Virus record (IMG/VR): IMGVR_UViG_3300028587_000020
Span: 1 to 35,162 of that record
Source: a virus
Lineage: Duplodnaviria; Caudoviricetes
DNA: 35,162 nt
Strand: one strand, 5' to 3'
Part shown: positions 23,045-32,220 of the stretch, one piece after another
Layout: every line of letters starts with the position of its first letter
Position numbering within the stretch: position 1 is the stretch's first letter
Made by a program: the position numbers and the translations under genes
The notes under the pieces: generated by a model
Told to the model about the DNA's origin: nothing
Databases searched by the model: none
What the model saw: only the letters and a program-made list of their open reading frames with translations

Positions 23045-23713
23045 TCACACTGCCGTGTACCTTGCTGTTCCGACAGCATATTGTACGCCGGTCAAATAGA
23101 CCCGGTTAAAGTCGGCAGTTCCGCCAAAAGCTCGGATGCTAGAAGTGTTGAAGTCGTCCTGAAGGAAAAGTCGGACACCCTGATAAATGTTCAGGTTCGT
23201 GTCGACGGTTCCTACTGAAACAGGAGAATGTCCCAGCATGTAACCCCCGCCTTCTCGTGGGCTAAGTCCAATAGGCAGGGTTTTGAAAAGCTGGTACGAA
23301 ACATTTCTCGAGATGTTTCCGGAGGTTGGCCCGATGATTCCTCGCCAGTAGCACTGACCTCTATTGTCGAGAGCTATTTGGAAAGGTGCGGCTGGAACGG
23401 GATTCAAAGTCCAGCCGGTAATGTCCATGCATGTATTGGGAACTGTCACCCAGGGGGAAATGGCATCCTGGATGGGTCGCCAATGCCAACCCCAGTTCGC
23501 ATCTTTACATGCGAGCAGATAGATTGACTGGGTGTCGCTCTTGTAAAACCTGTCGCCGACATTATAATTCCCGGCTGTTGGTAGACTTGTGCCAGCAGGG
23601 GCGGCGGGAATGTCGGCTAGCTTGTCCCAGTTCGCATTGAGCCAAGTTTCAAAGTTGGCCATGCTGTCATTTGGGTCTGCCATATTGAATCCATAGTTTG
23701 GCGTGACCGGCAT
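23045..23713 (-). CDS. Tail-fibre/receptor-binding-like protein, paralog 3
   Basis: Start at ATG 23713 (TAATG overlap). N-terminal TPNYGF...WLNANWDKL followed by a beta-rich C-terminal domain. Confidence 0.65.
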   Translation of the reverse strand: MPVTPNYGFNMADPNDSMANFETWLNANWDKLADIPAAPAGTSLPTAGNYNVGDRFYKSDTQSIYLLACKDANWGWHWRPIQDAISPWVTVPNTCMDITGWTLNPVPAAPFQIALDNRGQCYWRGIIGPTSGNISRNVSYQLFKTLPIGLSPREGGGYMLGHSPVSVGTVDTNLNIYQGVRLFLQDDFNTSSIRAFGGTADFNRVYLTGVQYAVGTARYTAV

Positions 23714-24345
23714 TAGTACCACCACCAAACTTGGTCAACCATAACAAAGTTGCCGCCACCAGCGCCGCCCATATATTGCACTGATAGGCGGACGTAAGTA
23801 TTTCCCACTGGCTGCTCAACTTTAATGAGCCCACCCTGCGCAACAGAAGTACTTGACCCTGTATTCAGGGAAATAGCACAGGGATTGTAGTGAATGTTTC
23901 CGATCGGCTGCATTGATGCTGGAGGAGAGCCAGCGGCATCCGAATTGAGCAGAAAGAAAGATCCCATGGGCCAGGCGCTTGCAGCGGCGTCATACTGAAA
24001 ACCGCCAGTACATTCCACCATTCGATAAAGTGGATTGTTTCGCCACTTTGGGGTGAATCCTGTCCTGGGTGCTCGTGCTACAGCTACAGGAAAGTTAGTC
24101 CACGCCGACCAACCCTCTGAAATGTTCTGAGGAGCGATGAGTGACGAAGTGCCGCGAACGCAGAATTCAAAAGAGCCGTTGAAATGCTCTTGGCCTGTTT
24201 CTACGTTCGTCATGGTCCCACCTTTCATATAAGGCGTTAGTTTCGCCTCAATGTGGTCCCAGTTTGCATTTATCTGTGCAGCTTCATCAACAAGTGGATC
24301 ATTCGGGGCCGGCGGTGCAATCTTGTTAAAGTTCAAGTATGCCAT
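23713..24345 (-). CDS. Tail-fibre/receptor-binding-like protein, paralog 2
   Basis: N-terminal LNFNK...QINANWDHIE followed by a beta-rich C-terminal domain. Confidence 0.65.
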   Translation of the reverse strand: MAYLNFNKIAPPAPNDPLVDEAAQINANWDHIEAKLTPYMKGGTMTNVETGQEHFNGSFEFCVRGTSSLIAPQNISEGWSAWTNFPVAVARAPRTGFTPKWRNNPLYRMVECTGGFQYDAAASAWPMGSFFLLNSDAAGSPPASMQPIGNIHYNPCAISLNTGSSTSVAQGGLIKVEQPVGNTYVRLSVQYMGGAGGGNFVMVDQVWWWY

Positions 24346-27645: not shown

Positions 27646-28161
27646 TCACCCCCTGGGGGCTGCTCCCAAACTTTCAAAAGTTTCTGACCAATTGTTGTCG
27701 ATCAACTTTACTTCGAGCAATGCCTCAAATACCTGCTGTGGCATCTTGTTCACAATGTTTTCTTCGTACTTCTGCACCATGTCAGGGTGCACGCAAAAAG
27801 CCACAGCGAATTGAACTGGGGAAGTCCAGTAGCCGCTCCGCCATCTTTCAAAGATAACGTGGCCAGGCAGGGAACTTCCGTGGCGCTCCAACTTGTGAGG
27901 ATTGAAACGCTCTTTCGTCGCGATGCGCGATGCCTTTTGAAAGACCTCGTATCTATGCGAAACCGCAGCGAGATTGATGTTCAAAGCTTCCGCTGTCCAC
28001 TTTTGAAGTGCAGGGTTCAGCTTGCTATAAGTTCCCTGCTCTACGCGGGAAATGTACTGGCGACTTAGGCCCAATCTTTTAGCCAAAGCCGGCCCGCTCA
28101 TACTTTGCGCAAGTCTTGCGTCGGCAACTGGATTAGCGAATCTTCCAGCAAAACTTCCCAA
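27646..28161 (-). CDS. XRE-family transcription regulator with two tandem HTH-like repeats
   Basis: ARLAQSMSGPALAKRLGLSRQYISRVEQG and a second repeat WRSG..TSPVQFAVAFCVHPDMVQKYE. SD AAGGAGG precedes the TTG start. Confidence 0.8.
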   Translation of the reverse strand: MGSFAGRFANPVADARLAQSMSGPALAKRLGLSRQYISRVEQGTYSKLNPALQKWTAEALNINLAAVSHRYEVFQKASRIATKERFNPHKLERHGSSLPGHVIFERWRSGYWTSPVQFAVAFCVHPDMVQKYEENIVNKMPQQVFEALLEVKLIDNNWSETFESLGAAPRG

Positions 28162-28219
28162 GGGCCTCCTTTTTAAGTTCCGTGAGTGGCCTTTTTGGGT
28201 TTGGGGTTACTGTGTTCTA

Positions 28220-28248
28220 ATTTTACGTCGGTACCTGTTGGTTGACAA
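28220..28248 (-). promoter_or_regulatory. Sigma70/HrdB-type promoter for the leftward arm
   Basis: TTGTCA-N17-TAAAAT on the minus strand, about 60 bp upstream of the XRE start. Confidence 0.7.
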
Positions 28249-28263
28249 CTGTAGAGAGAAAAA

Positions 28264-28449
28264 GTGAAAAAATTCCTGGTCGGGGCGACCCTTGCAACTT
28301 TCGTCGCTTGGGTGCCTGTAACAGTTGGTTTTGTTTTCGGTATTTACCTCGTCGAACACTTTGATTTCGAGGCCCTAAAGTTTGAGGCGTACTTTTGGTT
28401 TTTGATGGTCTACGGGGCGGCGGAATGGTTGACAAGCTTTTTTGGGTGA
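28264..28449 (+). CDS. Small two-TM membrane protein
   Basis: 61 aa with two hydrophobic stretches, but only a weak SD. Confidence 0.45.
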   Translation: MKKFLVGATLATFVAWVPVTVGFVFGIYLVEHFDFEALKFEAYFWFLMVYGAAEWLTSFFG

Positions 28450-28559
28450 ACTGGGGCTAGGGAACCAGAAAAAGGAAACGCGAGTGGAAATCAGGACAAC
28501 ATTAATCCCCCTGGCAAACTTTCCCTTGTAAGTCACCAAGGCGAAAGTTGGGGGAGATC

Positions 28560-28865
28560 ATGTACGCGGGAACAATCGCAGTCATCATCGCGGGTCTGAT
28601 TGGTCTGCTGGCCATGGCTTTCGGTGTTGAGGGTGACGAGCCGATGGGCGCGGACATTGTTCCCGTTGTCATTCCTCCGATGCCGAACTACGCGCCGCTC
28701 AGTGAAGTCACGTGGGAAGACTTTCACGCCGACGCGTACCAGGAATACGCCGACGCTTTCGATGACTATTTCAACGCCATCGAATACAAGCGTGCGAAGA
28801 ATGGCGCGTCGATGGTTCGTCGCCCCGGTGACAAGTCGTTCCGTTTCGTGAAGAAGGGTAAGTGA
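28560..28865 (+). CDS. Membrane-anchored hypothetical protein
   Basis: ATG 28560 follows SD GGGGGAG; N-terminal TM segment and GC3-rich codons. Confidence 0.75.
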   Translation: MYAGTIAVIIAGLIGLLAMAFGVEGDEPMGADIVPVVIPPMPNYAPLSEVTWEDFHADAYQEYADAFDDYFNAIEYKRAKNGASMVRRPGDKSFRFVKKGK

Positions 28866-29149
28866 TCAAAGTGAAGAAGTTCATCGGAGCCATCGCGTTT
28901 CTGGACAGTGAGAAGGAGGATCGGCGTACGGCAGTCATGACTTTCGAGATCATGACGGACTGGTTTCAGTCGGTGCTCGAATTCCACCGTCAGGCAGTAA
29001 AGCTGGGGGACTTTGACGGAACGGAGATTCTCGTCAACGTCTACGAGTACAGCGGAACGCACAAGCCTTTCGAGGGCGTTCACCCGTACATGTTCGACTC
29101 GCAGGATCTGATTCATTCTGAATCGATCCGAAACCCGTACCACGTCTGA
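28862..29149 (+). CDS. Hypothetical protein (95 aa)
   Basis: GTGA coupling, GC3-rich codons and a following terminator. Confidence 0.8.
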   Translation: MIKVKKFIGAIAFLDSEKEDRRTAVMTFEIMTDWFQSVLEFHRQAVKLGDFDGTEILVNVYEYSGTHKPFEGVHPYMFDSQDLIHSESIRNPYHV

Positions 29150-29150
29150 G

Positions 29151-29191
29151 AAAGTGCGGGGCCAGTCTTCGGATTGGTCCCCACTTTTTTT
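29151..29191 (+). terminator. Intrinsic terminator
   Basis: GTG(C)GGGGCCAGTC-TTCG-GATTGGTCCCCAC followed by T7, with a cUUCGg tetraloop. Confidence 0.9.
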
Positions 29192-29224
29192 GTCGGCGGC
29201 TGGAAAAGCGGGTGGAAGTTTGGG

Positions 29225-29775
29225 GCCTAGGCGTCCAGTCGCTAATGTTCTGGATGTAGGTCAGCGGCTCCGGTCCAGCGGCGGTTAGATTCCGTGCGCA
29301 GATTGGGCACCAAGGCGGGGAATTGTTTTCCCTAGAGCGTGCGAATGTCGCCCGGCAAAACTTTGAGAACTAAACATCGGGATTCACCCGAAAGTCTTCA
29401 ACGCTGGGAAGCGTGGGCGACTTTCCGCGATAGAACATTGTGAGTCGAAACTCTTCCGACCATCCGTTTCAGCAGGCGCGAAATTGCCTTCCCTGGGAAG
29501 TTTGTACTCCCATACCGCATAAGTGCGAACCACTGAACAATGGTCCGTCGGAATAAGTCGACTCCACTAGCCAAGAATATGAGCGCCACCTTTAGGTGTG
29601 ACTCATGTTCAACGCTTGACAAGTGATCCATAAGCATTCGCTTAGCGCGATGCGGCTTTGGGCATAACCGTGAACGGTCAAACCGGACACGAAAAATTCG
29701 CCCCTTCCGAGGGGTGAGTTATGCCCATTGCCGCTTCAAGGGCTGATAGACTTCCCTTGGGAAGCGATAAGGCAA
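29225..29775 (+). ncRNA. Candidate large structured ncRNA or leader with a boxA-like element
   Basis: About 600 bp without a credible ORF, with many helices including long-range pairs 29442-29460/29547-29564 and 29659-29668/29718-29727. G.U pairs favour the + strand. Confidence 0.7.
29361..29376 (+). promoter_or_regulatory. boxA-like Nus antitermination motif
   Basis: CTTTGAGAACTAAACA resembles the actinobacterial rrn leader boxA region, which I recall as (C/T)TTGAGAACTCAA(C/T)A. Confidence 0.55.
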
Positions 29776-29798
29776 CACCCAACCGAAAGGATCACATC

Positions 29799-30830
29799 AT
29801 GGCCAGCATGACGTTCGAAGAGGCGCTTGAGGTCGTCAAGGGTATGGGTATCCCTGACGCGGGACTTAAGCCGCTCCAGGACAAGTGGGCCGAGACCGAA
29901 AAGATGATCCTGCTCAACAATGAGCGGATCGTGAAGATCAACGCGGCAAAGGCGCAGGACCCGACAAAGCCCGGTTACGCGGATGAGCTGGACAAGCTTT
30001 GGGCGGTGCACGCTCCGCAGGACTCCGAAATGTCGGAGAAGGAGAAGGAATACCAGGCCATCACCGCAAAGGCCGAGAAGCTTCTGAAGGAACTGCGGGA
30101 ATTCGCCAAGACCAAGGTGACCCCGCCGCTTTCGGAGAAGGAGAATGCTGATCTCCGAAAGGCCGTCAACGACGGAAAGCCCGCCATCGATTCCGCGCGT
30201 GAGGGAATCAAGGCAATGGCAACAATGGTCGATGGCATTCTCACTGCCGCAGGAAAGCCGATTGAGGGTGGACTTGTTTCGCTTCTCCCGGAAGCTGACT
30301 CTCTGAAGAGTCTTCGGGGCCGAAAGGCTTCGGGTGGAAGTAGCACGTCCTACATGACGCGCATCGGTGATGGAATGGTCAACGGCACTTCCATCGCAAA
30401 GGATGGCAAGGCCAATTTCCACGCGGTGGCTGACAAGGTTTCGGAACTGTTCGGGGCCGGTCAGTTCCCCGCCAACAAGGTCACGGGTGAAGAAGTCGAA
30501 ACCGAGTTTTACAAGGCGATCGGTAAGGACTTCCGGTCGATGAAGACCGTGAAGACTCCGGATGCGCCGCAGGTTTCGGAGTTCGATTTCACCAAGGAAG
30601 TCACCACGGGTGAGAACACGACGGAAACCCGTACGGTGAAGATCTCAATTGTTGCGAAGGAGTCGGAGGCGAAGACGGAAAGCGAGAAGCCTGCCGACAA
30701 CAAGAGTGACAACACCCCGGCCGTGAAGAATGAGGGTGAGACCGAGAAGGTGGACGCCGAGAAGGTTCCCGCTCAGGAAGTTCCCGCCCCGGCAAAGAAG
30801 GCGACGGCCGCAAAGCCCGCCAACAAGTAA
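29799..30830 (+). CDS. Hypothetical Lys/Glu/Ala-rich protein (343 aa), likely highly expressed
   Basis: ATG 29799 follows SD GAAAGGA. Strong AAG/GAG/GC3 codon bias, coiled-coil N-terminal half and a PAKKATAAKP tail. Confidence 0.85.
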   Translation: MASMTFEEALEVVKGMGIPDAGLKPLQDKWAETEKMILLNNERIVKINAAKAQDPTKPGYADELDKLWAVHAPQDSEMSEKEKEYQAITAKAEKLLKELREFAKTKVTPPLSEKENADLRKAVNDGKPAIDSAREGIKAMATMVDGILTAAGKPIEGGLVSLLPEADSLKSLRGRKASGGSSTSYMTRIGDGMVNGTSIAKDGKANFHAVADKVSELFGAGQFPANKVTGEEVETEFYKAIGKDFRSMKTVKTPDAPQVSEFDFTKEVTTGENTTETRTVKISIVAKESEAKTESEKPADNKSDNTPAVKNEGETEKVDAEKVPAQEVPAPAKKATAAKPANK

Positions 30831-30849
30831 AACCCGCTAGACCAAATTA

Positions 30850-30877
30850 CCCTCGGTCAAATGGCCGGGGGTTTTTT
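30850..30877 (+). terminator. Intrinsic terminator
   Basis: CCCTCGGTCA-AA-TGGCCGGGGG followed by T6. Confidence 0.8.
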
Positions 30878-30909
30878 GGGTAGAAGCCAAAGACGAAAGG
30901 AAGCAACAA

Positions 30910-31044: not shown

Positions 31045-31072
31045 AACCCCCTCAATTGAGGGGGTTTTTTTT
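31045..31072 (+). terminator. Intrinsic terminator
   Basis: AACCCCCTC-AATT-GAGGGGGTT followed by a T-tract. Confidence 0.9.
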
Positions 31073-31438
31073 GTGCCTATTTTCTGGCGGCCGACCCCCT
31101 AGGGTGAGAGGTCTTCCGGAGTGGAATTTCCGCCGGTCGACGCCTATAGGTGAGAGGGTTCGCAAACAACCAAACTTTGAGCGAACAAGTGAACTTTGCT
31201 TTGACCTCAAAAGTTTTGGCCTCACGAACTTTCCAAAAGTTGAATGGGGCCAAACGGGTGAACTACTCCGTATGGGTACTGTTGGGGCACCCGGGGACTG
31301 TTGGGGTAAATCGGACAACTCACCCTGTTTATAACCAACCGGGACCTCACAGCCAGACCGACTGAAAGGAGTGTCGGCTGACTGTGAGTCCCATGACTTT
31401 TGCACAAAATAGGCCCCTGACCTGCGGCTTTTTCAGCG

Positions 31439-31467
31439 TTGCATATAGACTTGCAGATCTGTAGAAT
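31439..31467 (+). promoter_or_regulatory. Sigma70/HrdB-type promoter
   Basis: TTGCAT-N17-TAGAAT, 100 bp upstream of the wHTH gene. Confidence 0.7.
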
Positions 31468-31566
31468 CTGATTGACACATCCTGAGGATCTGCAAAAGCG
31501 GACATACCGGGCGGGGGCCCATAGTCCTGAGACTTTAGGGCTAACTTTCAAAAGATTGGAGGATAC

Positions 31567-32220
31567 GTGAATCTTAGCGAGAAAAAGAAAGTCAAGGCTT
31601 CTAACCAAAGTCTTGTGTACGGCGTGTTTGGCGAAGACGAAAAGCTTACCGTTCGAGAAGTTGCCGAACGCGTGAACTTGGGTCTCCGCGAGAATGGCCC
31701 GCACGAAAGAATCAGTGAAGCCACTGTTCGACGTGCGGTGAGTGATCTGGAGAAGTTGGGTTCACTCAAAAGTTATGGGAGGCAGAACAATGCTTTCCTG
31801 TACGGCAAGCCGACAGCTGCATTGTTTGACAGCGACCGGAAATTGATCCCTTACGCGGGTGAATTGAAGGACGTTGAAGATTTCATTCGCATCATCACTA
31901 ACCCCAAAGAACGGCCTTTCACGCGCAACACGGCCGTGATGGGGGAGAAGATGCAGCACAATGTGCGCCGACAATTGGCGTATGTTGTGATGAGTTCCAT
32001 CGACGCTGGCTTTTCTCAGCAAGTTCGTGACGTGAATACCACGCTGCACAAGCTTGTTGAGGACTTGGCGTATGTTCACAGCGTGCTGGAAGGTTTCTTG
32101 AATAGTCCCGTTTGGTACCCGCAATATCGGGACCAGATGGCTGTGGCCGTTCGGGAAATGCAGAAGAACGACCCGGAACTTTTCCAGTTGGCGCTGGACT
32201 ACATCAAGAGCGGGGAATGA
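31567..32220 (+). CDS. Winged-HTH DNA-binding protein
   Basis: LTVREVAERV...ISEATVRRAVSDLEKLG (DeoR/ArsR-like wHTH). SD GGAGG. Confidence 0.8.
   Translation: MNLSEKKKVKASNQSLVYGVFGEDEKLTVREVAERVNLGLRENGPHERISEATVRRAVSDLEKLGSLKSYGRQNNAFLYGKPTAALFDSDRKLIPYAGELKDVEDFIRIITNPKERPFTRNTAVMGEKMQHNVRRQLAYVVMSSIDAGFSQQVRDVNTTLHKLVEDLAYVHSVLEGFLNSPVWYPQYRDQMAVAVREMQKNDPELFQLALDYIKSGE

Follow-up and report, generated by a model that had tools for sequence, protein, structure and literature searches.

A modular folded leader with a host-type boxA ahead of the gene for a 343-residue protein in a family of 46-kb actinophages

It was in E. coli that rRNA-type antitermination was worked out, and tests in Gram-positive bacteria are described as only beginning (PMC13753749). 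According to one account, the E. coli boxA is both necessary and sufficient for the rRNA antitermination complex (PMC10250234), and in another the B. subtilis boxA binds NusB, with boxA also preceding suhB and CRISPR operons in Gammaproteobacteria (PMC13753749). In parallel, GOLLD and ROOL have been described as large structured phage RNAs of unknown function that often adjoin tRNA genes (10.1101/2024.12.08.627333). Here we describe a region in a stretch of phage DNA of 35,162 nucleotides (IMG/VR record IMGVR_UViG_3300028587_000020; hereafter the window, to which unlabelled coordinates refer). Read from its sequence and those of its relatives, this region is a modular leader of 250–590 nt, made of a predicted promoter, a T-loop hairpin, a boxA, a long stem that some leaders lack, two small hairpins and a 3' helix.

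The window is part of a 46-kb phage, the same gene and leader being found, identical, in a 46,187-base IMG/VR contig with direct terminal repeats. An actinobacterial host is probable because the capsid protein resembles (41–44% identity) those of Cellulosimicrobium phage DS1, Arthrobacter phages Jasmine and Adat, and Microbacterium phage Shocker. The virion genes lie on the − strand below 27.7 kb, and the leader region lies about 700 nt into an oppositely oriented arm of small + strand genes without known function, which we infer to be the early region. Two of these small genes (28560–28865 and 28862–29149, +) lie upstream of the leader and are closed by an intrinsic terminator (29151–29191, +; stem 29158–29181), already pointed out in a preliminary description of this DNA and represented by equivalent hairpins in the relatives. 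The first of the two encodes 101 aa, with a hydrophobic N-terminus, a basic C-terminal motif kept in several relatives, and no PHROG match. The gap of 29192–29798, from this terminator to the ATG at 29799, was confirmed, with no conserved small ORF in eight leaders, and the Shine–Dalgarno sequence GAAAGGA (29785–29791) stands ahead of the ATG. Further long gaps lie close by, at about 27680–28550 and 31070–31560. The family DNA compared with the window came from seven contigs (L006–L010, L013 and L039), of which L006 and L010 are close relatives of each other, and the ninth locus was that of phage DS1 (L014). Module counts out of nine refer to the window, the seven relatives and DS1, and the eight family leaders are those without DS1. 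In all nine loci a non-coding gap lies ahead of the gene. In the cultured phage DS1 (L014 34432–35036, −), the gene's distant relative stands behind the promoter motif, TAATGT, boxA and some 330 non-coding nucleotides; the other modules were not detected there, and the L039 leader likewise retains little besides boxA.

The region folds better than its shuffles, with z −4.2 on the + strand and −2.3 on the − strand, and among 71 segments of 490 nt the target segment, whose edges were picked by hand, ranks first at z −7.7, followed by −6.6, −6.4 and −6.2 against a mean of −2.4. The second-best segment of the genome (22886–23375, −; z −6.6) overlaps an ORF at 23045–23728 and the gap before the terminase region. 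A second long gap on the + strand, following a terminator at 31045–31066 and extending with the genes behind it from 31060–31700 on to 33170, folds almost as well (z −6.4, −6.2 and −5.5 at 31216, 31706 and 32686); the promoter motif recurs there in partial form at 31119, and a TTGACA stands at about 31473. Many 150-nt segments of the genome are also below z −4; given that the genome folds well overall, folding energy alone is modest evidence, and the case is built on comparison. The seven related contigs have helices equivalent to those of the window, with compensatory changes. In five anchored helices, 148 of 149 pairs are kept within each leader's own sequence, as opposed to 57–90% with strands crossed between sequences, the window being omitted from two T-module rows and L008 from one because of interrupted helices. 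This set holds 21 G–U pairs and one A–C opposition, a count biased toward G–U because the helices were chosen by eye with G–U allowed. The leaders also fold better than shuffles (z −1.7 to −7.2), the + strand being the better one in six of eight. Because pairs are kept within their own sequences, change in a compensatory manner and include far more G–U than A–C, this comparison identifies the region as a conserved RNA structure on the + strand. A covariance-model search matched it to no Rfam family.

The preliminary description had proposed an undescribed ncRNA or very large leader, and this stands insofar as the RNA structure is conserved and absent from Rfam, but not as one single RNA. A single molecule like GOLLD or ROOL does not fit a region built of separable modules, 250–590 nt long in the relatives, whose largest module is absent in four of eight. 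Several of the helices proposed there were recovered, namely the long-range helix (29442–29460/29547–29564), a long hairpin and a junction behind it, with pair probabilities of 0.87–1.0, but the interior drawn for the long-range helix was not: CTTCC/GGAAG and ACCA/TGGT reach pair probabilities of 0.01 and 0.0, and AGGCG/TGCCT (0.64) and CGCA/TGCG (0.66), though predicted, both clash with a covarying helix described below. The hairpin proposed at the 5' end exists, but it spans the predicted −10 (29243–29248) and lies mostly upstream of the predicted start. The last hairpin had to be given up in its described form, since it lies over the promoter predicted for the gene itself (−10 at 29747) and the relatives have nothing equivalent.

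At the 5' end, the predicted promoter P1 (29202–29257, +) comprises an upstream motif at 29202–29216, a −10 TAATGT at 29243–29248 and a probable start at about 29255–29257. P1-like promoters with this motif occur in seven of the nine leaders, with a spacing of 26–27 nt between motif and −10. The motif, GGAAwwGCGrGTGGA, is conserved among the phages and has its first copy at 28474–28488 (+), ahead of the first early genes, so that in the family and DS1 it precedes both early promoter-like sites. Two copies are present in four of five 20-kb stretches and one in the fifth, with no match in 607 kb of host loci, and it is a possible binding site for a regulator. A similar −10/+1 pattern lies upstream of 7 of 70 host rRNA boxA sites (1.9 expected). 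Downstream of P1 there is a 5' hairpin with a tRNA-type T-loop (29268–29312, +), present with covariation in six of nine leaders and built of a helix, a 3-nt bulge, a 4–5-bp stem and a 7-nt loop, the window carrying a degenerate form; no rRNA-derived piece was detected in this module.

The claimed rRNA-type boxA was located at 29362–29376 (+), and boxA or a variant of it is the one module found at all nine loci; in the eight family leaders it lies on the transcribed strand, 46–212 nt past the inferred start of the predicted promoter. The pattern, which was modelled on the window's site, is of the actinobacterial rRNA-operon type and precedes 16S in host loci. It matched about 4,300 stretches in the genome collection, mostly from Actinomycetota among the 80 matches listed, and of 120 loci fetched, 35 had at least 450 nt downstream, with a 16S start within 700 nt in 27 of these. 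The window's own boxA ends in AAACAT, not AAYAG. In three of five whole phage records the strict pattern has a single match, each at this leader, with one control match, and two of the five have none; the looser variants of L010, L013 and L039 were accepted after widening the patterns on sight of them. Variants also occur in short leaders of 250–340 nt without module C, the long stem. The site is unpaired about half of the time in folding ensembles (0.34–0.75), which counts against an antitermination function, as do the two genomes lacking a strict match. In the window it is held in a multiloop closed by a helix at 29347–29354/29414–29421 (+; pair probability 0.89), which is clear in L007 (0.83), weaker in L008 and L010, and not predicted in four others.

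Module C (29442–29564, +) is an optional long irregular stem present in four of nine leaders. Within it, helix P4 (29477–29480/29524–29527, +) keeps 16 of 16 pairs, and three of its four positions change on both sides (CGCG/TGCG, TCAG/TTGA, TGAG/TTCA and TCGG/TCGA in the four leaders). Although the energy model in the window prefers the small inner hairpins (0.64–0.66) over P4 (0.25), the covariation of P4 makes one long stem the better reading than two small hairpins; the long stem is thus favoured from the alignment, with a tentative mid-stem register. Near its tip lies a 6x4 internal loop (29487–29517, +), with CTTCCC (29488–29493) opposite TACC (29513–29516), a variable hairpin cap, and the consensus YYYCCC opposite YAYC closed by C–G and T–A. 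Module C is not detectably rRNA-derived, given that 48 of 200 shuffles did no worse than the module itself when compared with an alignment of 19 host operons.

In phage DNA, only 33 nt at boxA matched the region, in the Streptomyces phages Faust and Blueeyedbeauty, inside an unannotated gap of 1.5 kb. The same 6x4 loop, with different flanking helices, lies downstream of boxA in all 13 Loccivirinae-type leaders fetched, 141–179 nt behind it as against 117–124 nt in the present family, and the order of promoter, boxA and loop is the same in these 13, ahead of an unrelated small gene. In these phages (Faust L001 3480–3906; L046–L057) there is a conserved, unannotated folded leader of about 400 nt behind tandem promoters and boxA, and the small gene that it precedes is rich in Lys, Arg and Ala. 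No such loop was found in 834 kb of other loci. Over 12 distinct sequences, 86% of the cells in the loop's helices pair and 15 cells change on both sides, with none of 500 shuffles equalling this and 22–58% paired when the partner strand is slid, although these counts are inflated by relatedness and the motif was defined on both phage groups. A search of 72 kb with a model from the four family sequences alone put this loop in the top two places, though with weak scores (E 0.086 and 1.8). When viral contigs were scanned for the loop strands alone, boxA lay 140–159 nt upstream in 5 of 120 matches, and helices were present on both sides of the strands in all five of these versus 2 of the 115 others. 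These five are probably no third phage family, because the one such match that was read is Loccivirinae-like. A bolder idea, which we hold tentatively and lean against, sees in the loop stem a new mobile RNA domain, set by unrelated actinophages 120–180 nt behind a copied rRNA boxA. There it may form a portion of the antitermination complex that is encoded as RNA; alternatively, after excision, it may be a stand-alone RNA that captures a factor of host transcription or ribosome assembly within minutes of the onset of infection.

Downstream of module C follows the long hairpin (29575–29610, +), whose conserved tip CACC–TTTA–GGTG (29587–29598) is of the C(TTTW)G type; it occurs in seven of nine leaders with 28 of 28 pairs kept. 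Next comes TTGACA with a small palindrome, TAAGC-N4-GCTTA (29616–29646, +; six of nine leaders), the palindrome standing 9–10 nt after a perfect TTGACA, with no −10 at canonical spacing and an almost invariant stem. This element could be a DNA site (a phage-controlled promoter or operator) or an RNA hairpin. The 3' helix (29659–29727, +; seven of nine leaders, 55 of 56 pairs kept) closes a variable interior, a three-way junction in the window, and ends 20 nt ahead of the −10 of a second predicted promoter (29744–29765, +). This one has an extended −10 (TGn TAGACT, 29747–29752) and GGGAAGC at its inferred start, and TGn-TAnnnT with GGGA(A)GC 6–8 nt behind it stands about 50 nt ahead of the start codon in eight of eight family leaders. 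This conservation makes it likely that the gene has its own promoter. In the window no terminator lies between P1 and the gene; therefore, transcription from P1 is still expected to yield a long RNA that extends across the gene to 30872. The closing terminator claimed at 30850 was found just after the gene (30849–30878, +), and in three of five genomes a script detected a terminator-like hairpin no more than about 50 nt from where the gene ends.

The gene itself (29799–30830, +) encodes the 343-aa protein, with predicted long N-terminal helices, a basic linker with RGRK, a C-terminal alpha/beta domain and a PAKK-type tail. It is not the orphan that had been described, since it has 32 related clusters at 35–56% identity and 54 profile matches among 50% representatives. 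Its distant relative in DS1 has 253 aa (profile E 2e-4, probability 46%), and a 253-aa viral model, which by its length is probably the DS1 protein, matches at E 3e-6. The structure model has a mean pLDDT of 73, low confidence in the basic linker and a disordered tail. No family was found with PHROGs, Pfam (33 members) or Foldseek (E ≤ 0.001; whole model and C-terminal domain), and a wide structure aligner returned helical matches only. Of 33 members, 31 carry RGR[KR] and 26 a PAKK-like tail, and the protein has no net basic charge (K+R 52, D+E 57). The RGR and PAKK-type tails presumably recall DNA-bridging proteins. In the related phage Jasmine, the outermost, first early gene is annotated as Lsr2-like, with no detectable homology to the 343-aa protein. 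Neither the Pfam nor the Foldseek comparison returned an Lsr2 or H-NS domain for the 343-aa protein.

We place a host-type antitermination leader first, at a probability of roughly 0.5, because promoter and boxA are never missing, whereas the presence of the folded modules varies. The folded untranslated head of the early transcript would load the host Nus/rRNA antitermination complex via its host-type boxA, and host RNA polymerase would then be kept from terminating prematurely, both in the long leader, which is untranslated, and in the early region. A promoter-like site, the 5' hairpin and boxA stand in the order of an rRNA leader, and the comparison shows covarying RNA helices on the + strand. 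By analogy with E. coli and B. subtilis, boxA would recruit NusB–S10 and build the rRNA antitermination complex, with resistance to Rho as the expected outcome, and the folded modules may be accessory docking domains, gained and lost. The 6x4 loop is likely a protein site or a tertiary contact, because its bases are fixed while the flanking helices change. Two sources would supply the 343-aa protein, the long transcript and a short-leader transcript from the gene's own promoter; as to its function, DNA-binding regulation early in infection is more likely than dedicated partnership with the RNA. In this way, the phage would likely borrow the host rRNA read-through machinery for its first transcripts. 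The intrinsic terminators downstream of the gene would count against this antitermination function if the rRNA complex of actinobacteria stops at them, and antitermination also leaves module conservation unexplained.

The main rival, which we consider somewhat doubtful, takes the folded RNA itself as the product: a stable phage ncRNA, freed when the transcript is processed at the 3' helix, that might for instance work against host defences or bind a host RNA-binding factor as a decoy, while boxA, as in rRNA operons, serves only to protect and fold it. It would account for a separate downstream promoter that makes the leader dispensable for the gene, for the fixed loop in two unrelated phage families, for the tRNA-type T-loop, and for a 3' helix kept in seven leaders and ending just before the second −10; but it sits poorly with a window that has no terminator anywhere from P1 to the gene, with a length and module content that vary so widely that L039 retains little beyond boxA, and with the absence of an Rfam match to a known stand-alone class. 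It is unlikely that the C-rich loop strand works as a conformational switch, pairing with GGGAAG just before the ribosome-binding site to control translation of the first gene. GGGAAG does lie downstream in all four module-C leaders and in nine of ten Loccivirinae-type leaders checked, and its pairing with the loop reaches a probability of 0.91 in L007, but this falls to 0.0–0.001 in the window, L008 and L009, the GGGAGA matching the Loccivirinae loop TCTCCC is absent downstream in ten of ten, and GGGAAGC is retained in leaders without the loop.

We find it similarly improbable that RNA and 343-aa protein form a dedicated ribonucleoprotein, as the preliminary description proposed, or that the protein is an N-like antiterminator binding the leader. 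The gene does stand behind a boxA leader in all eight family loci, and its distant relative likewise in DS1, and the basic RGRK motif of 31 of 33 members falls in the low-confidence linker; the obligatory character of the unit is nevertheless weakened by the gene's own promoter in eight of eight and by the loop in Loccivirinae phages, where tblastn found no relative of the protein, which is thus dispensable, as far as sequence searches tell, for the presence of the loop. Moreover, the protein occurs without module C in four of eight loci, lacks a net basic charge, and has RGR and PAKK-type tails that resemble those of DNA-bridging proteins, with the Lsr2-like annotation in Jasmine pointing the same way. 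Finally, a DNA control region of promoters and operators with incidental folding is highly improbable, since the good folding of other segments (down to z −6.6, with many of 150 nt below −4) and the almost invariant TTGACA-palindrome stem are outweighed by compensatory changes, 21 G–U versus 1 A–C, and a covariation of the loop's helices that 0 of 500 shuffles match.

In comparison with known systems, the rRNA-operon leader, described as 5' hairpin/boxB, boxA and boxC (PMC10250234, PMC13753749), resembles the phage leader in having the same actinobacterial boxA behind a promoter-like site and a 5' hairpin, and in being followed by a long untranslated folded RNA. The phage leader differs in that no rRNA follows (no Rfam rRNA match), no leader–trailer helix was identified, and a protein gene with its own predicted promoter lies downstream. 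Like lambda nut/N and HK022 put in their published descriptions (PMC10250234, PMC8632103), it would be a cis-acting RNA heading a phage early transcript, and it has boxA in common with nut, but this boxA has the host's rRNA-type sequence. No homologue of N was identified, the 343-aa protein having no PHROG or Pfam match and a short RGRK motif only; and while lambda boxB, a hairpin to which an arginine-rich N protein binds, is described as short and HK022 put as a 65-nt double hairpin, here there are 250–590 nt of modules. With the suhB and CRISPR leaders of Gammaproteobacteria (PMC13753749) it shares a boxA outside rRNA operons, whereas here the carriers are phages of Actinobacteria and conserved folded modules follow. 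GOLLD and ROOL, discrete abundant RNAs that multimerise, differ in that the phage leader matches none of their Rfam models and is modular and variable instead of one conserved architecture, and, unlike them, it has no tRNA gene for a neighbour in the 35-kb window, the portion of the 46-kb genome that was scanned. There is also a likeness to the Loccivirinae (Faust) leader near the genome right end, unannotated in the GenBank records consulted, with promoter, boxA and then the same 6x4 loop; its other modules do not align, its downstream gene is unrelated, and its genomes are of 130 kb versus 46 kb. In the open-access literature, no account of boxA leaders or of the 6x4 motif in actinophages was found.

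In summary, boxA outside rRNA operons and RNA elements heading phage early transcripts are already known kinds, and what is new is a 46-kb phage family with the boxA-leader layout, a separate gene promoter, and a loop motif that it shares with the unrelated Loccivirinae. A phage leader copying the actinobacterial boxA offers a small, non-essential substrate to test antitermination in Streptomyces and relatives, with cultured phages carrying the same parts (boxA and loop in Faust and its kin; boxA and gene in DS1). The shared loop is an RNA motif without an Rfam family and is open to a clear mutational test, and if the RNA were a separate product it would represent a new class of early phage RNA.
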